The notes below the pieces were generated by a model. That model did no database searches and was not told where the DNA came from. It saw only the letters and a list, made by a program, of their open reading frames with translations. A DNA stretch of 22,194 bases from a virus, in UHGV virus genome UHGV-0136179; one strand, 5' to 3'. Made by a program: the position numbers and the translations under genes. Of this stretch, positions 3,439-18,356 are shown one piece after another (positions within the stretch are counted from its first letter, which is position 1; every line of letters begins with the position of its first letter).

Positions 3439-3710
3439 GTATTAGTATTGAAATTGGCGAACGTTATGTCGTTACCAGTGACAGCTTTCAGTTTATTCTC
3501 CACGAGAAAAAGAGAGCTGAAAGCGGTAAAAACGCCGGTCAGGAATGGCTGGCGGTGGTTGGTTATTACCCGAAATTAAGCCAGCTCGTTTCCGGCCTGA
3601 TGCATCACGATATTCTGACCGGAAGCGCAAAGTCTTTTGCTGATTTAAACGCGCAGGTTGAGCAACTCAGCAAGCGTTGTTCAGAGGCTTTTGGCTCATA
3701 TGGCCGTTAA
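3435..3710 (+). CDS. Hypothetical early protein (orf83 position)
   Basis: 91-aa ORF, GGAGAA SD, overlaps the A start. Confidence 0.45.
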   Translation: MSISIEIGERYVVTSDSFQFILHEKKRAESGKNAGQEWLAVVGYYPKLSQLVSGLMHHDILTGSAKSFADLNAQVEQLSKRCSEAFGSYGR

Positions 3711-5967
3711 AGCCTCCGGGCGTTTTGTCCCTCCGTCAGTATTTGCCGCAGGCACCGGTGAGACGTTTACCGGTGCTTATGCATGGAACGCGCCACGCGA
3801 GGCCGTCGGGCGCGAAAGACCCCTTACACGTGACGAGATGCGTCAGGTGCAAGGTGTTTTATCCACGATTAATCGCCTGCCTTACTTTTTGCGCTCGCTG
3901 TTTACTTCACGCTATGACTACATCCGGCGCAATAAAAGCCCGGTGCACGGGTTTTATTTCCTCACATCCACTTTTCAGCGCCGTTTATGGCCGCGTATTG
4001 AGCGCGTGAATCAGCGCCATGAAATGAATACCGACGCGTCGTTGCTGTTTCTGGCAGAGCGTGACCATTATGCGCGTCTGCCGGGGATGAATGACAAGGA
4101 GCTGAAAAAGTTTGCCGCCCGTATCTCATCGCAGCTTTTCATGATGTATGAGGAACTCTGCGATGCATGGGTTGATGCACATGGCGAGAAAGAATCGCTG
4201 TTTACAGATGAGGCGCAGGCGCATCTGTATGGTCATGTTGCTGGCGCTGCACGTGCTTTCAATATTTCCCCTCTCTACTGGAAAAAATACCGTAAAGGAC
4301 AGATGACCACGAGGCAGGCATATTCTGCCATTGCCCGTCTGTTTAACGATGAGTGGTGGACTCATCAGTTTAAAGGCCAGCGTATGCGCTGGCATGAGGC
4401 GTTACTGATTGCTGTCGGGGAGGTCAATAAAGACCGTTCTCCTTATGCCAGTAAACATGCCATTCGTGATGTGCGTGCGCGCCGCCAGGCAAATCTGGAA
4501 TTTCTTAAATCGTGTGACCTTGAAAACAGGGAAACCGGCGAGCGCATCGACCTTATCAGTAAGGTGATGGGCAGTATTTCTAATCCTGAAATTCGCCGGA
4601 TGGAGCTGATGAACACCATTGCCGGTATTGAGCGTTACGCCGCCGCAGAGGGCGATGTGGGCATGTTTATCACGCTGACCGCGCCGTCAAAGTATCACCC
4701 GACACGTCAGGTCGGAAAAGGCGAAAGTAAAACCGTCCAGCTTAATCACGGCTGGAACGATGAGGCATTTAATCCAAAGGATGCGCAGCGTTATCTCTGC
4801 CGTATCTGGAGCCTGATGCGCACGGCATTCAAGGATAATGATTTACAGGTCTACGGTTTGCGAGTCGTCGAGCCACACCACGACGGAACGCCGCACTGGC
4901 ATATGATGCTTTTTTGTAATCCACGCCAGCGTAACCAGATTATCGAAATCATGCGTCGCTATGCGCTCAAAGAGGATGGCGACGAAAGAGGAGCCGCGCG
5001 AAACCGTTTTCAGGCAAAACACCTTAACCGGGGCGGTGCTGCGGGATATATCGCGAAATACATTTCAAAAAATATCGACGGCTATGCACTGGACGGTCAG
5101 CTCGATAACGATACCGGCAGACCGCTGAAAGATACTGCGGCGGCTGTTACCGCATGGGCGTCAACGTGGCGCATCCCGCAATTTAAAACGGTTGGCCTGC
5201 CGACAATGGGAGCTTACCGTGAGCTACGTAAATTGCCTCGCGGCGTCAGCATTGCTGATGAATTTGACGAACGCGTGGAGGCTGCACGCGCCGCCGCAGA
5301 CAGTGGTGATTTTGCGTTGTATATCAGCGCACAGGGTGGGGCAAATGTTCCGCGTGATTGCCAGACTGTCAGAGTCGCCCGTAGCCCGTCGGATGACGTT
5401 AACGAGTACGAGGAAGAAGTCGAGAGAGTGGTCGGCATTTACGCGCCGCATCTCGGCGCGCGTCATATTCATATCACCAGAACGACGGACTGGCGCATTG
5501 TGCCGAAAGTTCCGGTCGTTGAGCCTTTGACTTTAAAAAGCGGCATCGCCGCGCCTCGGAGTCCTGTCAATAACTGTGGAAAGCTCACCGGTGGTGATAC
5601 TTCGTTACCGGCTCCCACACCTTCTGAACACGCCGCAGCAGTGCTTAATCTGGTTGATGACGGTGTTATCGAATGGAATGACCCGGAGGTCGTGAGGGTG
5701 CTCAGGGGCGCATTAAAACACGGCCTGAGAACACCAAATCGTCAGCAAAGAAACGGAAGCCCGTTAAAACCACATGAAATTGCACCATCGGCCAGGCTGA
5801 CCCGGCCGGAACGATTGCAAATTACCCGTATCCGCGTTGACCTTGCTCAGAACGGTATCAGGCCTCCGCGATGGGAGCTTGAGGCGCTGGCGCGTGGGGC
5901 AACAGTAAATTATGACGGGAAAAAATTCACGTATCCGGTCGCTGATGAGTGGCCGGGATTCACATAA
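3700..5967 (+). CDS. A: Rolling-circle replication initiator gpA (HUH endonuclease superfamily)
   Basis: 755 aa from the ATG at 3700 (the ORF extends to 3658 via a non-ATG). HUH motif PHWHMMLF and tyrosine motif GYIAKYISKNIDGY are visible in the translation. Confidence 0.9.
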   Translation: MAVKASGRFVPPSVFAAGTGETFTGAYAWNAPREAVGRERPLTRDEMRQVQGVLSTINRLPYFLRSLFTSRYDYIRRNKSPVHGFYFLTSTFQRRLWPRIERVNQRHEMNTDASLLFLAERDHYARLPGMNDKELKKFAARISSQLFMMYEELCDAWVDAHGEKESLFTDEAQAHLYGHVAGAARAFNISPLYWKKYRKGQMTTRQAYSAIARLFNDEWWTHQFKGQRMRWHEALLIAVGEVNKDRSPYASKHAIRDVRARRQANLEFLKSCDLENRETGERIDLISKVMGSISNPEIRRMELMNTIAGIERYAAAEGDVGMFITLTAPSKYHPTRQVGKGESKTVQLNHGWNDEAFNPKDAQRYLCRIWSLMRTAFKDNDLQVYGLRVVEPHHDGTPHWHMMLFCNPRQRNQIIEIMRRYALKEDGDERGAARNRFQAKHLNRGGAAGYIAKYISKNIDGYALDGQLDNDTGRPLKDTAAAVTAWASTWRIPQFKTVGLPTMGAYRELRKLPRGVSIADEFDERVEAARAAADSGDFALYISAQGGANVPRDCQTVRVARSPSDDVNEYEEEVERVVGIYAPHLGARHIHITRTTDWRIVPKVPVVEPLTLKSGIAAPRSPVNNCGKLTGGDTSLPAPTPSEHAAAVLNLVDDGVIEWNDPEVVRVLRGALKHGLRTPNRQQRNGSPLKPHEIAPSARLTRPERLQITRIRVDLAQNGIRPPRWELEALARGATVNYDGKKFTYPVADEWPGFT

Positions 5968-6114: not shown

Positions 6115-6244
6115 CCGCGCGCAATGTTGAGTATGCTTAAGATATAGCGTTTACAATTCCAGGCTTGAAGGCTCGGGTATAGGTAAAAATTGAGTGTTCT
6201 CGGTTGCTTTTCGTGACATAAGAGGACAGCAAAGGAGGTTGAGT

Positions 6245-6715
6245 ATGTACAGCCCATTGAACATCGCGAATAAGTTTATAGAACTTGCTTGCGCGGCTGG
6301 TATGCCAATCACCCAGATGCAGGCACAAAAGCTGACCTATATAGCACATGGTATAAATCTGGGTTACAAAGGCACGCCTTTGTTAACGACACCAGTTTGT
6401 GCATGGCGTTATGGTCCAGTGGTTCCAGTTCTGTATAACCATCTTAAAGTTTATGGCCGTAGTCCCATAACACAACCAATACAAGTTCCATCGGCAATTT
6501 CTCAGGAGTTTGACCCTATGACTGAGCAGTTGCTGCAGAACGTTTATAACGTTTACGGTAAATATACCGCTGAGGATTTATCTGCTTTCACACATCGTGA
6601 AGGTACTCCTTGGAAGCAAGCAATGGATAGTCGTATGGATATCATTCCTGATTCCGTTATTCAGGATTACTATCAAAAGCTGCTACACGGCGATAGCAAT
6701 TGCATCGGACTATGA
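6245..6715 (+). CDS. Panacea/DUF4065-like protein (candidate antitoxin or defence component)
   Basis: ATG at 6245 with perfect AAAGGAGG SD 6 nt upstream; 156 aa. Segment QKLTYIAHGINLGYKGTPLLTTPVCAWRYGPVVPVLYNHLKVYG resembles the DUF4065 core as I recall it (KLQKL.Y.A.G ... W..GPV.P..Y). Located in the A-Q variable slot. Confidence 0.5.
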   Translation: MYSPLNIANKFIELACAAGMPITQMQAQKLTYIAHGINLGYKGTPLLTTPVCAWRYGPVVPVLYNHLKVYGRSPITQPIQVPSAISQEFDPMTEQLLQNVYNVYGKYTAEDLSAFTHREGTPWKQAMDSRMDIIPDSVIQDYYQKLLHGDSNCIGL

Positions 6716-6730
6716 GTCCGAATTAAGATA

Positions 6731-6755
6731 ACCCCGTCTATGTACGGGGTTTTTT
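6731..6755 (+). terminator. Intergenic hairpin plus T6 between the two cargo genes
   Basis: Stem ACCCCGT (6731-6737) / ACGGGGT (6744-6750), 6-nt loop, T-run 6750-6755; the downstream ATG begins at 6756. Confidence 0.55.
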
Positions 6756-7328
6756 ATGCCTGACGATAATAAGAAAGTGACAGCTGAATTTGATAAAGAC
6801 CTTCTCAGACGATTGCAGCAAGCTGAGCAGAATCTGATAACTGCCTCTGCGGCTTTGGGAGATGAGGGCTGTTGGGATGAAGAATCTCATGAGCCTGAGT
6901 CTGTTGAGGACGCTGTTGATGAAATGCAAAAGGAAGAAGAGGATGCTGCGACCATGCAGCGTTTGGATTTATCCAGTCTTAATTTTCAAATTGCTGAATT
7001 GAGTCGCTGTGTTGAAACTATAAGCACTAACCTTGAAAGCGTACAGGCAGAAACCAAAAGAAAAAATGCGGAAACCGACGGCCTGCTTACGGACAATGAG
7101 CTCCGTAGAACTATGGCTGATAAAACATATCAATTCATGATTGTTTGGTGTTGTTTTGTCGGCTGGGTCATATTTATGTATGTATTGAAAAAAGATTTTG
7201 ATCCACCAGAAACAATTATCATTGCGCTTATGGGAACCACAACTGTGAGTATTGTGGGATTGGTTGGGTTTGTTGTTAGTGGTTTGTTCAAAAGCAACAA
7301 TAAACCTTCTGGCGACAATAAAAATTAA
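6756..7328 (+). CDS. Acidic coiled-coil protein with C-terminal two-helix membrane hairpin (candidate toxin/effector)
   Basis: 190 aa. Acidic N-terminus (EESHEPESVEDAVDEMQKEEEDA); hydrophobic segments FMIVWCCFVGWVIFMYVL and IIIALMGTTTVSIVGLVGFVVSGLF; A+T-rich. Start uncertain because it abuts the terminator T-run. Confidence 0.5.
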   Translation: MPDDNKKVTAEFDKDLLRRLQQAEQNLITASAALGDEGCWDEESHEPESVEDAVDEMQKEEEDAATMQRLDLSSLNFQIAELSRCVETISTNLESVQAETKRKNAETDGLLTDNELRRTMADKTYQFMIVWCCFVGWVIFMYVLKKDFDPPETIIIALMGTTTVSIVGLVGFVVSGLFKSNNKPSGDNKN

Positions 7329-7704: not shown

Positions 7705-8739
7705 TCAGCCGTTGTCAGTGTCCAGTGAGTAGTTTTTAAAGCGGATGACCTCCTGACCGAGCCAGCCGTTTATCTCGCGGATCCTGTCCTGTAGCGGGAT
7801 AAGCTCATTGCGGACAAAGACCTTTGCCACTTTCTCAATATCACCCAGCGACCCGACGTTCTCCGGCTTGCCGCCCATCAACTGAAAGGGGATGCGGTGC
7901 GCGTCCAGCAGGTCAGCGGCGCTGGCTTTTTTGATATTAAAAAAATCGTCCTTCGTTGCCACTTCACTGAGCGGGATAATTTTAATGCCGTCGGCTTTCC
8001 CCTGTGGGGCATAGAGAAACAGATTTTTAAAGTTATTGCGGCCTTTCGACTTAACCATGTTTTCGCGAAGCATTTCGATATCGTTGCGGTCCTGCACGGC
8101 ATCGGTGACGTACATGATGTATCCGGCATGTGCGCCGTTTTCGTAATACTTGCGGCGGAACAGCGTGGCCGACTCATTCAGCCAGGCAGAGTTAAGGGCG
8201 CTGAGATATTCCGGCAGGCCGTACAGCTCCTGATTGATATCCGGCTCCAGCAGGTGAAACACGGAGCCGGGCGTGAAAGGTGTCGGCTCGTTGAAGGACG
8301 GCACCCACCAGTAAACATCCTCCTCCACGCCACGACGGGTATATTTTGCCGGTGAGGTTTCCAGTCTGATGACCTTACCGGTGGTGCTGTAACGCTTTTC
8401 CAGAAACGCATTACCGAACACCAGAAAATCCAGCACAAAGCGGCTGAAATCCTGCTGGGAAAGCCACGGATGCGGGATAAATGTTGAGGCCAGAATATTA
8501 CGTTTGACGTAAATCGGTGAGCTGTGATGCACGGCAGCACGCAGGCTTTTTGCCAGACCGGTAAAGCTGACCGGTGGCTCATACCATCTGCCGTTACTGA
8601 TGCACTCGACGTAATCCAGAATGTCACGGCGGTCGAGTACCGGCACCGGCTCACCAAAGGTGAATGCCTCCATTTTCGGGGCGCTGGCGGTCATTTTTTT
8701 TGCCGCAGGTTGCGGTGTTTTCCCTTTTTTCTTGCTCAT
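7705..8739 (-). CDS. Q: Portal protein gpQ
   Basis: 344 aa, identical in length to P2 gpQ; leftward, start overlaps the P stop (ATGA); position next to cos. Confidence 0.9.
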   Translation of the reverse strand: MSKKKGKTPQPAAKKMTASAPKMEAFTFGEPVPVLDRRDILDYVECISNGRWYEPPVSFTGLAKSLRAAVHHSSPIYVKRNILASTFIPHPWLSQQDFSRFVLDFLVFGNAFLEKRYSTTGKVIRLETSPAKYTRRGVEEDVYWWVPSFNEPTPFTPGSVFHLLEPDINQELYGLPEYLSALNSAWLNESATLFRRKYYENGAHAGYIMYVTDAVQDRNDIEMLRENMVKSKGRNNFKNLFLYAPQGKADGIKIIPLSEVATKDDFFNIKKASAADLLDAHRIPFQLMGGKPENVGSLGDIEKVAKVFVRNELIPLQDRIREINGWLGQEVIRFKNYSLDTDNG

Positions 8740-10511
8740 CAGTAAAACTCCAGAATGGTGGATGTCAGCGGGGTGCTGATACCGGCGGTGAGTGGCTCAT
8801 TTAACAGAGCGTGCATGGTCGCCCAGGCGAGGTCGGCGTGGCTGGCTTCCTCGCTGCGGCTGGCCTCATAGGTGGCGCTGCGTCCGCTGCTGGTCATGGT
8901 CTTGCGGATAGCCATAAAGGAGCTGGTGATGTCGGTGGCGCTGACGTCATATTCCAGACAGCCACGGCGGATAACGTCTTTGGCCTTGAGCACCATTGCG
9001 GTTTTCATTTCCGGCGTGTAGCGGATATCGCGCGCGGCGGGATAGAACGAGCGCACGAGCTGGAACACGCCGACACCGAGGCCGGTGGCATCAATTCCGA
9101 TGTATTCGACGTTGTATTTTTCGGTGAGTTTGCGGATGGATTCAGCCTGAGTGGCAAAGTCCATGCCTTTCCACTGGTGACGCTCAAGTATTCTGAATTT
9201 GCCACCGGCCACCACCGGCGGTGCCAGTACCACGCATCCGGCGCTGTCGCCACGGTGTGACGGGTCGTAACCAATCCATACCGGGCGGGAGCCGAACGGA
9301 TTGGCGGCAAACGGCGCATAGTCTTCCCATTCTTCCAGCGTGTCGACCATGCAGCGTTGCAGCTCCTCGAACGGGAACACCGATGCCTTGTCGTCAACAA
9401 ATTCACACATGAACAGGTTTTTAAAATCGTCGGCGCTGTTTTCGCGTTTGAGCTGCTCAATGTCGAACAGCGTGCAGCCGCCTTTCAGGGCGTCCTCAAT
9501 GGTGACAATCTGCCGCCACTGGCCGTCCGCACAGAGAAGTCCACCGGCAAGGGCGTTATGACTGACGTCGATTTCCACGCGTTCGGCGGCGCTGGCGCGT
9601 CCCCGGTTAAACAGTTCACCCGACCAGAACGGGTAGGCGTCGTGCGCCAGCGTGGACGGGGTGGAGAAATAGGTCGAACGCAGGTGACTCTGTGAGGCCA
9701 TACCTGATGCCACCTTACGCAGTACCTGAAAATTCGGGATCCAGAAAATCTCGTCGACGTACAGGTCGCCGTTATGGCTCTGTGCGGTGTTGGAGTTGGT
9801 GCCGAGAAAAATCAGTTTTGCGCCGTTATTGCCCAGGACAATCGGGTCACCGGTCAGGTCAACGTCAACCAGCCGGGCAAAGGCGATGATGTATTCGCGG
9901 AACACATACGCCTGTGTTTTACTGGCCGACAGAAAAATCTGGTTATGACCGGTTTTCAGGGCGCGCAGCAGCGCCTCGCGGGAAAAATAAAACGTCGCGC
10001 CAATCTGGCGGGATTTCAGGATATCGCGGATGCGGTGCTCAAGCCCGGCGCGATACCAGTGCAGCTGATAGTCGAAAGACTGCTCAAAGAAAATCTGCTC
10101 CAGCTTTTCGATGGCCTCGTCACTGAAAAAATTCTTTTTCGGTTTGCGACGCCCGCCTTTGTTGCGGTTAGCGACGTTCGGATTAAGGTCTGCCTCGTTG
10201 CCGGTCTGACTGTAACGGTTGACCCGTGCCAGTCGTTCAATCTGGCGTCCGAGCAGGTCAATTTCCTTGAAGTCACCGCCGGTTTTCTGCGGTTTGATGA
10301 TGAGCCGGGTCAGCCGCGCTTCCAGACTCATTTCGACACGGCTGATGGGGGCAACGCTGTCCCAGCCGTCGCGCTGTTTCCAGCTCTGCACCGTCGGGCG
10401 TTTCATCTGCAACATGGCGGCAATCTGCGGCACGGAAAACCCCTGCCAGTACAGCAGCGCCGCCTGACGACGCGGGTCGTGTAAAAGAGTGGTGTCTGTG
10501 GTGATGGTCAT
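8739..10511 (-). CDS. P: Terminase large (ATPase) subunit gpP
   Basis: 590 aa from the ATG at 10511 (GAGG 6 nt upstream), equal to P2 gpP; the ORF extends to 10541. Divergent from O as in P2. Confidence 0.9.
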   Translation of the reverse strand: MTITTDTTLLHDPRRQAALLYWQGFSVPQIAAMLQMKRPTVQSWKQRDGWDSVAPISRVEMSLEARLTRLIIKPQKTGGDFKEIDLLGRQIERLARVNRYSQTGNEADLNPNVANRNKGGRRKPKKNFFSDEAIEKLEQIFFEQSFDYQLHWYRAGLEHRIRDILKSRQIGATFYFSREALLRALKTGHNQIFLSASKTQAYVFREYIIAFARLVDVDLTGDPIVLGNNGAKLIFLGTNSNTAQSHNGDLYVDEIFWIPNFQVLRKVASGMASQSHLRSTYFSTPSTLAHDAYPFWSGELFNRGRASAAERVEIDVSHNALAGGLLCADGQWRQIVTIEDALKGGCTLFDIEQLKRENSADDFKNLFMCEFVDDKASVFPFEELQRCMVDTLEEWEDYAPFAANPFGSRPVWIGYDPSHRGDSAGCVVLAPPVVAGGKFRILERHQWKGMDFATQAESIRKLTEKYNVEYIGIDATGLGVGVFQLVRSFYPAARDIRYTPEMKTAMVLKAKDVIRRGCLEYDVSATDITSSFMAIRKTMTSSGRSATYEASRSEEASHADLAWATMHALLNEPLTAGISTPLTSTILEFY

Positions 10512-10684
10512 GAATACCTCGCCGTGATGAATCCATGGCAAGGCTACTGAGTCGCGCCCCGCGATTCGCTAAGGTGCTGTTGTGCCAGTGATAAGCCATC
10601 CGGGACTGATGGCGGAGGATGCGCATCGTCGGGAAACTGATGCCGACATGTGACTCCTCTAATCACTATTCAGGACTCCTGACA

Positions 10685-16010: not shown

Positions 16011-16440
16011 TGCCGTCATGGTGCTGAAAACCAGTCCCGAGATGCTGCGGATATTCGTGGATAACGGGAGTATTGCCTCCACACTGGCGACGTCGCTGTC
16101 ATTCGAAAAGCGTTACACGCTCAATGTGATTGTGACCGACTTTACCGGTGATTTTGACCTGCTCATCGTGCCGGTGCTGGCGTGGCTGCGGGAAAATCAG
16201 CCCGACATCATGACCACCGACGCAGGTCAGAAAAAGGGCTTCACGTTTTATGCAGACATCAACAATGACAGCAGCTTTGATATCAGCATCAGCCTGATGC
16301 TGACCGAGCGAACGCTGGTCAGTGAGGTGGATGGCGCGCTGCATGTGAAGAATATCCCGGAACCTCCGCCGCCGGAGCCGGTCACCCGCCCGGTGGAGCT
16401 TTATATCAATGGCGAACTGGTGAGCAAGTGGGATGAATGA
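15973..16440 (+). CDS. R: Tail completion protein gpR
   Basis: 155 aa (P2 gpR is 155 aa). Confidence 0.85.
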   Translation: MLKPDSLRRALTDAVMVLKTSPEMLRIFVDNGSIASTLATSLSFEKRYTLNVIVTDFTGDFDLLIVPVLAWLRENQPDIMTTDAGQKKGFTFYADINNDSSFDISISLMLTERTLVSEVDGALHVKNIPEPPPPEPVTRPVELYINGELVSKWDE

Positions 16441-16891
16441 GTTTAAGCGTTTTGAAGACCGGCTGACCGGACTGATTGAATCGCTGTCACCGTCAGGGCG
16501 TCGGCGACTGGCGGTAGATATTGCGAAGAAACTGCGCCAGCGCCAGCAGCAGCGAATTAAATTACAAAAAGGCCCGGATGGTACGCCGTATGTACCGAGA
16601 AAAAACCAGCCAGTGCGAAATAAGAAAGGCCGGATAAAGCGGGAAATGTTTGTGAAATTACGCACTAACCGGTTTATGAAAGCAACAGGTAGCGAGAGTG
16701 CGGCGGTGGTGGAGTTTGCCAGCGGAGTACAACGAATTGCGCGAGTACATCAATTAGGGCTTAGGGATAAGCCGGGGCGTAATAGTGCTGTGGTGGAATA
16801 TCCTGTTCGTGAGTTATTTGGTTTTGACAAGGAATCTATACAATTGATAGAAAGGGAGTTATTAGTGATTCTATCGAAAGATGTTATATGA
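16433..16891 (+). CDS. S: Tail completion protein gpS
   Basis: 152 aa (P2 gpS is 150 aa); the last ~50 codons become A+T-rich, suggesting the cargo junction lies inside the gene's 3' end. Confidence 0.8.
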   Translation: MNEFKRFEDRLTGLIESLSPSGRRRLAVDIAKKLRQRQQQRIKLQKGPDGTPYVPRKNQPVRNKKGRIKREMFVKLRTNRFMKATGSESAAVVEFASGVQRIARVHQLGLRDKPGRNSAVVEYPVRELFGFDKESIQLIERELLVILSKDVI

Positions 16892-17643
16892 GACGGGTGT
16901 TTGTGGATAAAAAGTTTTCCATTTTGAGAAAAAGAGTAAAGCATTCTCAAAAGAAAGTTATGGATTGTATTATTGCTGACCATAATGCTGATATATGTGT
17001 GTTATGCGGGAGTTCTGACGATATTACTCGTGAGCACATTATTCCTCAGTGGGCCTTTGAGTCAAATGCTGAAAAATCTTTAATTAATAAAAAGAATAAT
17101 CAGTCAACTCATTACATTAAAGCCACTGTACCAGCATGCAGAGTGTGCAATTCTGATTTGCTGGGAGTGTTTGAGTATAACTTGAAGAAATTTCTTACGG
17201 AAAAGAGGGGCGATGAGTTAACAGATTATGAATATGATTGCATCATATGGTGGTTGCAATACATGGGCTTTAAGTTGCAATTAATGGATTTACGGACCCG
17301 CTTTCTCAGGTATAAAGGGGGGGATTATATCCCTTTCCTTGCAAACTTCCCGGTTGCAATGTTTTGGGGGAATGTCGATACGACACCGGAGGATGTCTTC
17401 AGGATTATAAGAAAATCGCGACGCAATCTGATGTCGAAATGGAAGGATAAAAAACATAATTCTTTGATGGTTTTTGAAACATCAAACAAGAGTTTTCATT
17501 TCTTTCATAAGGTTGATGAATTTATTTTTATTGAAATGCCTCAGGTTAAGAAGGCGTTTTTCTTCTTTTTTAATAAAGAATTTGACAGCCATGATTTAGC
17601 TCATGAGGAGTGTATGAAGATTATAGAGAAGTACTACAACTAA
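16888..17643 (+). CDS. HNH-motif nuclease-like protein with uncharacterised C-terminal domain (cargo in the S-V slot)
   Basis: 251 aa. ATG overlaps the S stop (ATGA). Motif CVLCG-(x8)-EHIIPQW-(x)-CRVCN matches the HNH/His-Me finger pattern (CxxC ... [D/E]H..P ... CxxCN). Very A+T-rich against the GC-rich tail genes. Confidence 0.55.
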   Translation: MRRVFVDKKFSILRKRVKHSQKKVMDCIIADHNADICVLCGSSDDITREHIIPQWAFESNAEKSLINKKNNQSTHYIKATVPACRVCNSDLLGVFEYNLKKFLTEKRGDELTDYEYDCIIWWLQYMGFKLQLMDLRTRFLRYKGGDYIPFLANFPVAMFWGNVDTTPEDVFRIIRKSRRNLMSKWKDKKHNSLMVFETSNKSFHFFHKVDEFIFIEMPQVKKAFFFFFNKEFDSHDLAHEECMKIIEKYYN

Positions 17644-17720
17644 TATTTATTATGTTGTGTCACGGCTGACAGAGTCCTCCATGATTGCTGCTGGTATCGT
17701 CCGGCGGCATCCTTCCCGTC

Positions 17721-18356
17721 ATGAACACTCTCGCAAATATTCAGGAACTCGCGCGCGCACTGCGCAACATGATCCGCACCGGCCTTGTCGTCGAAACCAA
17801 CCTTAAAGCCGGTCGCTGCCGTGTGCAGACCGGCGGCATGTGCACCGACTGGCTTCAGTGGCTGACCTGTCGTGCCGGGCGTTCGCGCACATGGTGGGCA
17901 CCTTCCGTGGGGGAGCAGGTGCTGATTCTGGCCGTGGGCGGTGAACTTGACACGGCGTTTGTTCTGCCGGGGATTTATTCCGGCGATAACCCCGCGCCGT
18001 CTGCGTCGGCGGATGCCCTGCATATCCGTTTCCCTGACGGGGCGGTGATTGAGTATGAACCCGAAACCAGTGCACTGACGGTAAGCGGAATTAAAACGGC
18101 CAGCGTGACGGCTTCTGATTCTGTTACTGCCACGGTGCCGGTGGTCATTGTGAAAGCATCAACCCGCGTCACCCTGGACACACCGGAGGTGGTCTGCACC
18201 AACAGGCTGATTACCGGCACGCTGGAAGTGCAGAAGGGCGGGACGATGCACGGCAACATTGAACACACCGGCGGTGAACTCTCATCAAACGGTAAGGTAC
18301 TGCATACCCATAAACACCCCGGCGACAGTGGCGGCACAACAGGGGGACCTCTATGA
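17721..18356 (+). CDS. V: Baseplate spike gpV
   Basis: 211 aa from the ATG at 17721 (P2 gpV is 211 aa); the ORF extends to 17685 via a non-ATG. Confidence 0.9.
   Translation: MNTLANIQELARALRNMIRTGLVVETNLKAGRCRVQTGGMCTDWLQWLTCRAGRSRTWWAPSVGEQVLILAVGGELDTAFVLPGIYSGDNPAPSASADALHIRFPDGAVIEYEPETSALTVSGIKTASVTASDSVTATVPVVIVKASTRVTLDTPEVVCTNRLITGTLEVQKGGTMHGNIEHTGGELSSNGKVLHTHKHPGDSGGTTGGPL

Follow-up and report, generated by a model that had tools for sequence, protein, structure and literature searches.

P2-like phages have three cargo ('moron') regions, one of which is the slot between the tail completion gene S and the baseplate gene V. In the viable lytic phage R18C this slot holds ORF16, a hypothetical gene that replaces ORF30 of P2 and in which no motif was found (PMC6823313). 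Defence hotspots have been reported inside P2's tail genes (PMC13586616). Rousset 2022 covered only the cos-adjacent P2 hotspot, and the P2 hotspot literature that we searched makes no mention of a defence system in the S-V slot. Here we describe an A+T-rich gene located in this slot in a stretch of 22,194 nucleotides (nt) of the virus genome UHGV-0136179, which is hereafter referred to as the window. The gene encodes a protein with an HNH-type core, occupies a slot that in other genomes contains a Pycsar system or a candidate defence ATPase, and may participate in conflicts between mobile elements.

The closest described gene is ORF16 of R18C (QDP43509), which is the same gene, with 97% amino acid (aa) identity and the same S-V position. 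The slot, its cargo nature and the gene as a hypothetical open reading frame (ORF) are already published. In comparison with the R18C description and the literature searched, the present analysis adds four points: a conserved HNH core in the protein, a family that is broad and stand-alone, the slot context with its Pycsar and PDC-S59-like occupants, and the precise mosaic anatomy of the locus. Orf30 of P2 (NP_046770) is found in the same slot and is similarly non-essential, low in GC-content and close in size (261 aa), but its gene runs in the opposite direction and is separated from S by the O-operon terminator in P2, whereas the HNH gene is co-oriented with S and abuts it. Kinship between Orf30 and the HNH protein was rejected, the sequences being unrelated (best BLASTP E-value 0.47).

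The original prediction proposed a 251-aa ORF between S and V, loosely bracketed by positions 16740–17720, and the ORF was located at 16888–17643 (Table 1). Its proposed start in an ATGA overlap with the S stop codon holds in part: the overlap exists and is conserved across the Escherichia coli clade, but the start in use is probably GTG 16903, judging by comparison with homologues. Those of other genera open with MDKKF or MEKKF and have their own Shine-Dalgarno sequence 11–15 nt past the S stop. The codon equivalent to the start of MDKKF is GTG 16903 in the window and ATG in R18C and strain Ec-U9-2, and the 741-bp form of the gene is annotated both in R18C and in RefSeq. Since the probable start is 11 nt past the S stop, and not at −4 nt like ATG 16888, translational coupling through ATGA is uncertain. 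The predicted A+T-richness relative to the late genes was confirmed: GC-content changes from 55–63% upstream to 35–41% across the ORF and to 55–65% in V, the value for the gene overall being 36.0% and that of the flanks 56–60%. The ratio of non-synonymous to synonymous substitution rates (dN/dS) is 0.06–0.13 among the E. coli-clade copies, comparable to that of S and V. The gene is under strong purifying selection, i.e., it is functional. Occasional decay is also seen: in E. coli 1604D011 (locus L099, 916–1645) an 11-bp deletion breaks the gene into two coding sequences.

The motifs CVLCG, EHIIPQW and CRVCN, on which the original assignment to the HNH type was based, are all present in the translation. 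An alignment of 25 full-length family members sharing 26–71% identity contains 13 invariant columns (C37, C40, E49, H50, P53, W55, N70, C84, C87, N88, L92, W122 and K129). These include the catalytic-type residues E49-H50, N70 and N88, which would supply the catalytic histidine, at the end of strand 1, and the asparagine metal ligands characteristic of the HNH superfamily, and both CxxC pairs (C37-x2-C40 and C84-x2-C87), a putative structural zinc site. Judging by these residues, the core belongs to the His-Me fingers of the Cys4 zinc type and follows the catalytic pattern H-N-N. In the AlphaFold2 model (predicted local distance difference test 79, predicted template modelling score 0.83) the core residues are carried by strands 46–50, 64–67, 72–75 and 80–84 and a subsequent helix 85–105, and the strand-strand-helix order expected of a beta-beta-alpha fold appears in this prediction. 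The CxxC-bracketed E-H … N … N arrangement is shared with HNH_5 and His-Me finger group 1 (McrA, the HNH domain of Cas9, T4 Mob homing enzymes and Septu PtuB-type proteins), as would be the beta-beta-alpha layout predicted by the model. Unlike McrA or the homing enzymes, the protein has no recognisable reader or DNA-binding domain. It also differs from the Septu system, having no conserved neighbour, and so no PtuA-like ATPase partner, across 74 loci and no PADLOC match to PtuB, and being flanked by gpS and gpV. Terminase-associated HNH proteins of the HK97 gp74 type are about 100–130 aa long and encoded next to the terminase or portal genes of cos phages, whereas the present protein comprises 246–251 aa and is encoded between S and V; the ORFs at the positions expected for P2 Q (portal) and P (terminase), assigned by position, are at 7705–10541, about 7 kb from the HNH gene.

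The C-terminal part of about 150 aa, which the original prediction could not assign, is without detectable relatives in Pfam, NCBIfam, PADLOC, PDB or BFVD, and neither profile nor structure-based searches yielded an informative neighbour. In the model it consists of long helices, a low-confidence loop (139–164), a basic stretch (175–191) and a four-strand sheet with a terminal helix. A hint of a JetD_C / Toprim domain in 9 of 19 members was dismissed as spurious: the match (aa 141–184) falls in the low-confidence loop, does not reach the gathering score and has acidic residues that lack conservation across the wider family.

The protein matches phrog_10503, a PHROGs family of 'unknown function', over its full length (7e-180). 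HNH_5 is the top Pfam match in all 19 members scanned, always below threshold (best E-value 2.8e-4), and Endonuclease_1 is a further sub-threshold match of the HNH protein. A word-indexed protein search returned 45 clusters, nearly all from Enterobacterales and with 56–97% identity, and one Bacteroidota protein with 41%. A profile search of 1.84 billion representatives (50% clustering) gave 885 matches at E ≤ 1e-3 and 35 at E ≤ 1e-30, the latter being mostly full-length proteins of about 245–270 aa and otherwise fragments. Many relatives of 300–360 aa have only the HNH-plus-helix module (aa 25–135) in common, joined to other C-termini; their sole Pfam signal is again sub-threshold HNH_5, and no real PADLOC match was obtained for them. 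This suggests a modular family architecture, in which a nuclease module is combined with variable C-terminal partners. The clusters of relatives are named only 'hypothetical' or 'HNH endonuclease', and neither the family accessions nor the PHROG identifier is mentioned in any paper searched.

The gene is an additional gene of deviant composition between two late genes, as is characteristic of morons in the Hendrix sense, and the suggestion that the slot carries variable cargo is supported by a census of its occupants. The S-V query region was matched by 76 of 50,697 phage records, all P2-like. Among these, the HNH gene is found in one distinct phage (R18C, represented by two records), and in the other phages among the matches listed S directly abuts the V promoter. 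In E. coli the gene is present in 77 of 5426 complete genomes, always adjoining S. A flank-only query (the P2-like R-to-J region) matched 1675 E. coli genomes, and about 4.6% of them contain the HNH gene. In a spread of 60 rows across the ranking of these 1675 genomes, the slot state was assigned by slot length. The slot was empty in about 37 rows and held a P2 orf30-type gene in 11, while the HNH gene, a P-loop nucleoside triphosphatase (NTPase) and another hypothetical gene accounted for one row each; about 9 rows were partial or low-identity matches with no slot length.

Other occupants of the slot point to defence. A complete Pycsar system, consisting of an effector and an adenylate/guanylate cyclase, lies in the S-V slot of E. 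coli TUM18781 (NZ_AP023205.1; locus L015, 2900–4802), co-oriented with S and starting 16 nt downstream of it. In E. coli GB089 and S6aCHROMc (loci L013 and L014, 2973–4217) the slot contains a reverse-strand gene for a 414-aa AAA-type 'ATP-binding protein' that matches the PADLOC candidate PDC-S59 (1.5e-31). The defence cargo of the P2 hotspots (old, tin, fun/Z, as well as Pycsar and the PDC-S59-like ATPase) is, like the HNH gene, A+T-rich, variable and swapped by recombination in flanking core genes. The HNH cargo differs from that of the experimentally screened cos-adjacent hotspot in being located in the late operon. Side by side with the HNH gene, a Klebsiella locus (L004, 4926–5576) features a reverse-strand 216-aa ORF between this gene and V, with no Pfam or PADLOC match.

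The slot is bordered on the left by a mosaic S gene. The first 78 nt of S are 100% identical to P2 and Wphi, and the alignment diverges from position 16511 (S codon 27) onwards; residues 27–152 of gpS share 44–45% identity with the P2 and Wphi proteins, and the GC-content of this segment is 45.7%. The original prediction suggested a recombination junction in the 3' end of S. The junction is indeed inside S, but at codon 27, about 380 bp upstream of the HNH gene. The divergent S allele occurs in 97 E. coli genomes, in 79 of them at full length. In the remaining, partial cases the similarity stops at about 16717–16773 and other cargo lies beyond; therefore, each cargo brings its own last 40–50 codons of S. 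Correspondingly, the S proteins of different cargo carriers are identical up to approximately residue 105 and cargo-specific thereafter, and the C-terminus of gpS in the window (…FGFDKESIQLIERELL…) resembles that of HNH carriers from Klebsiella, Enterobacter and a metagenome, not that of the PDC-S59 or Pycsar carriers. The left junction of the divergent segment varies slightly between genomes (query position 1 versus 22). The right boundary, GTTGT-N10-ACA, aligns with a P2 site annotated as 'activator binding site; activation of pV promoter', and also with the bases directly past the S stop in Wphi. In the lineage of the window the divergent S allele and the HNH gene were recombined together, as a block at 16511–17653, into a P2/Wphi-type backbone.

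Homologues from Klebsiella, Enterobacter and a metagenome (56–69% identity) occupy the same position directly after S. A scan of IMG/VR gave 51 viral loci, 48 of which have the gene order R-S-HNH gene-V-W-J. The identity of their HNH proteins to that of the window ranges from 46% to 100%, and their backbones have diverged to 52% for S and 60% for V. One locus (L100, IMGVR_UViG_2695420792_000008) encodes an HNH protein 100% identical to that of the window and has near-identical flanks. About 77 nt separate the HNH gene from V, the exception being four loci with an extra 1-kb insert; carriers with an insert of roughly this size between the two genes include L132–L135 and the Klebsiella locus L004. 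Across the P2-like loci the GC-content of the HNH gene is 32.5–38.3%, versus 56.7–62.9% for the region from V to J. This low GC-content is maintained and is no mark of recent import: it persists in P2-like phages whose HNH genes are down to 46% identity, and the divergence of the gene goes along with that of R, S, V and W.

Co-divergence was assessed with all-pairs identity matrices for 40 distinct P2-like loci, using Spearman correlation and Mantel tests. Spearman's rho for the HNH gene was 0.72 with V, 0.66 with W, 0.61 with R and 0.57 with S, in comparison with 0.77–0.80 for V with R and V with W. Outside the E. coli clade the Mantel rho values were 0.64 for S, 0.57 for V and 0.60 for W (p = 0.001), and 0.40 for R (p = 0.007). 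Hence, HNH divergence tracks R, S, V and W about as closely as those genes track one another. No pair among the 40 loci combines near-identical HNH proteins (at least 95%) with a diverged backbone (V below 85%). A simpler indicator of co-divergence, the correlation of identities to the window, vanished in the non-E. coli subset and was replaced by the all-pairs Mantel test, which was supportive. The pattern indicates that the gene is an old, mostly vertically inherited slot resident in a minority of Peduoviridae. In two pairs of loci (L127 and L141, L132 and L137) V is 95–99% identical and the HNH alleles are 68–71% identical, which indicates allele replacement in the slot on top of this mainly vertical history.

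The family extends far beyond P2-like phages. A scan of species-representative genomes gave 130 relatives outside the phage sets, and 80 loci were kept, only three of them P2-like. The relatives come from Vibrio, Shewanella, Colwellia, Halomonas, Acinetobacter, Pseudomonas, Flavobacterium, Chryseobacterium, Pedobacter, Desulfobulbaceae, Gracilibacteria and other taxa, and approximately 70 of the 80 loci are variable chromosomal contexts outside phages, introns and inteins. Across 74 loci no conserved neighbour or partner (antitoxin, methyltransferase or ATPase) was found. Defence-type neighbours include two Mrr-type IV enzymes, bSEFIR, Mokosh, Lamassu LmuA, pAgo, SoFic, PsyrT and PDC-S31/S02/S03/S37. 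Relaxases and an integrase are among the other neighbours, and in Erwinia one copy is carried by a conjugative element and has an integrase and a KAP NTPase next to it.

Two further settings of the gene were observed. A member with 39% identity is encoded by a non-P2 phage (L148, 4004–4741; IMG/VR UViG_3300045988_180813) between the terminase genes terS/terL and an anti-repressor-like gene, which is another typical accessory-gene site; terS follows about 1.5 kb downstream, after two intervening ORFs. A gene with 67% identity is present in a metagenome-assembled genome labelled Sporobacter termitidis (L017) and in an assembly labelled Chryseobacterium sp. 18061 (L018). Their neighbours fall into clusters with homologues of R, S and V from a Kluyvera locus (L016), and these P2-like loci, of a phage type unexpected in such hosts, are probably due to contamination or mis-binning.

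In the window the HNH gene is packed directly behind S, as the original prediction stated, and a scan found no terminator-like site between S, the HNH gene and V. With a distance of 11 nt (or −4 nt) behind S and no terminator, co-transcription with the late O operon is predicted. A relaxed scan found a candidate sigma-70 promoter within S (TTGACA-N18-TGaTAGAAA; Table 1), in its cargo-specific 3' end, whereas nothing comparable is present in S of P2 and Wphi at the same relaxed threshold. The same scan of the Pycsar locus found TTCACA-N17-TAGAAT upstream of the cargo (L015, about 2815–2849). Promoter-like sites inside the 3' ends of S could drive slot cargo in lysogens, and the one in the window could add expression of the HNH gene in the lysogen.

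Taken together, the protein would be a stand-alone, probably zinc-stabilised HNH (beta-beta-alpha-metal) nuclease fused to a family-specific C-terminal region of helical and alpha/beta structure, its gene being accessory cargo of the 'orf30' slot, which lies between gpS and the V promoter. It would function as a single-protein nucleic-acid-cleaving effector in mobile-element conflicts, whether in anti-phage defence, in superinfection exclusion or against satellites, and restraint or targeting by the C-terminal region would spare host and P2 DNA. From the context, we put the chance that it is a self-contained effector for defence or inter-element competition at about even. A conflict role is the best supported one because the gene is mobile, dispensable, tolerated by host and carrier, and interchangeable in its slot with Pycsar and a candidate ATPase. 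The defence proposal of the original prediction is favoured by this context, but no defence model matches the protein itself: PADLOC v2 (PADLOC-DB v2.0.0) gave at best PDC-M01B, with an E-value of 0.033 over the HNH motif. Several other points weigh against the effector reading. The HNH_5 (PF14279) match scores 16.2 bits, below the Pfam gathering score of 27.5, and an NCBIfam scan of the protein gave nothing. Since no structural neighbour was obtained for any part of the protein, the function proposed for the C-terminal region is guesswork. A stricter scan gave no sigma-70 promoter upstream of the gene, and the relaxed candidate is a consensus-level match. Approximately 12–19 of 130 immediate neighbours of relatives match defence or candidate models, a count made with no background control, and many others are housekeeping genes. 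ORF16 of R18C is recorded as 'hypothetical'.

The arrangement at the late operon equally suits a function in the lytic cycle, in which a late nuclease would degrade host or competitor DNA or process DNA and would be vertically kept in a subset of Peduoviridae. The gene is always just downstream of S in late orientation, with a gap of 10–13 nt in 41 of 48 loci, and no terminator separates it from S or the V promoter. Its co-divergence with the late genes extends to deep lineages of Peduoviridae, down to an HNH identity of 46%, a pattern that fits such a helper as well as it fits the effector, and the gene is present in the viable lytic phage R18C. Nevertheless, we consider a helper function unlikely: the gene is dispensable, since about 95% of E. 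coli P2-like prophages lack it, as do the matching P2-like phage records other than those of R18C; full-length stand-alone homologues exist in non-phage chromosomal loci of distant phyla; and the slot is interchangeable with defence systems. In addition, P2 packaging is not known to require an HNH partner. The selfish alternative of the original prediction is disfavoured more strongly. A free-standing HNH homing endonuclease would cut S-V regions lacking the gene and be copied in by repair, leaving the divergent S as a co-conversion tract or a resistant allele. An A+T-rich, sporadic HNH gene wedged between two conserved essential genes agrees with this, as do the flanking divergent S segment with its differing left junctions and the weak BFVD structural matches (E-value 0.07–0.7), which include HNH homing endonucleases. 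Homing nonetheless appears very improbable given the approximately 70 of 80 loci outside phages, introns and inteins, the absence of NUMOD, AP2, IENR or helix-turn-helix modules by Pfam in any of the 19 members, and the co-divergence of the HNH gene with R, S, V and W, with no near-identical HNH in a diverged backbone. The divergent S allele is, moreover, linked to the Pycsar and PDC-S59-like cargo as well, so the S mosaic is a property of the hotspot and not of the HNH gene.

Within the defence reading, a modification-dependent (type IV-like) HNH restriction enzyme can be envisaged, whose C-terminal region would read hydroxymethylcytosine, its glucosylated form or other modifications. Such an enzyme would have no need of a methyltransferase or antitoxin and would leave the DNA of host and P2 intact. 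McrA-type enzymes belong to the same Cys4 HNH group (PMC5714182). The HNH protein is a single protein with no conserved partner, methyltransferase or antitoxin in its gene neighbourhoods, host and carrier phage tolerate the gene, and the two Mrr-type IV neighbours elsewhere suggest restriction-type islands. On the other hand, the searches showed no resemblance to a known reader domain in Pfam (SRA, EVE, YTH, Mrr-N or others) or to any solved fold, and nothing in the sequence ties the protein specifically to modified DNA; the probability of this sub-case is, in our estimate, low. A more specific version of the effector idea is a late-operon 'tripwire', suggested by the gene abutting gpS without a terminator. 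The nuclease would be switched on by late-promoter transactivation and would then cut intruder or competing DNA; the trigger could be Ogr, whether the phage's own or that of a superinfecting P2-like phage, or the delta protein from a hijacking satellite of the P4 type. We regard the tripwire as decidedly unlikely, but, if true, it would explain the attachment to S, the late-gene co-divergence and the use of the family elsewhere as free-standing effectors. In a weaker form of the proposal, the slot could be a so far unscreened hotspot of defence genes, with cargo promoters hidden in the cargo-specific 3' ends of S.

Table 1. Features of the S-V region of the window, with positions counted from the first nucleotide of the window.
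Feature	Position	Strand	Remarks
gpS (tail completion / virion morphogenesis)	16433..16891	+	152 aa; Pfam Phage_tail_S, 6e-29
Part of the divergent S allele common to Pycsar / PDC-S59-like carriers	16511..16773	+	megablast ends at query 207, 242 or 263
HNH-module-specific 3' end of S	16774..16891	+	travels with the HNH gene
Candidate sigma-70 promoter within S	16824..16853	+	relaxed scan, consensus match only
HNH-family cargo ORF	16888..17643	+	251 aa from ATG 16888; TAA stop 17641–17643
Probable true start of the HNH ORF	GTG 16903	+	246 aa, 741-bp form
Predicted HNH (His-Me finger) core	16996..17151	+	C37-x2-C40 … E49-H50 … N70 … C84-x2-C87-N88
Family-specific C-terminal region, ~aa 95–251	17170..17640	+	AlphaFold2 features, no known homologue
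Right cargo boundary, GTTGT-N10-ACA	17654..17671	+	aligns with the P2 V-promoter activator site
gpV (baseplate spike)	17721..18356	+	Pfam Phage_base_V, Phage_spike, Apex; high-GC P2/Wphi-like backbone

By alignment, the start of gpV is ATG 17721 (MNTLANIQEL) and not TTG 17685, the mechanical start of a 223-aa ORF (17685–18356) in the ORF list. Elsewhere in the window, a 'cargo locus 1' with a GC-content of 39–43% (6194–7328) lies at the classical old/tin hotspot position, between the ORFs at the positions expected for P2 A (3658–5967) and Q (7705–8739). It comprises two ORFs, one of 173 aa with a SocA/Panacea antitoxin domain (7e-18) and one of 190 aa with a weak DUF2975-like match. The pair looks like a PanA-type toxin-antitoxin module by its domain content, and neither ORF matched PADLOC.

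If the HNH protein has no role in conflict, the result is no more than an improved annotation of a hypothetical gene in an already known cargo site. The mosaic is in itself a clear case of cargo swapping by recombination within an essential gene, combining a shared divergent S allele, cargo-specific 3' ends of S and a right boundary that is fixed at the V-promoter activator site. Should the HNH protein protect against phages or satellites, it would represent a compact single-gene HNH defence family that is missing from Pfam, NCBIfam and PADLOC. The S-V slot would then be a third cargo reservoir of P2-like phages, unscreened experimentally and already holding Pycsar and a candidate ATPase.

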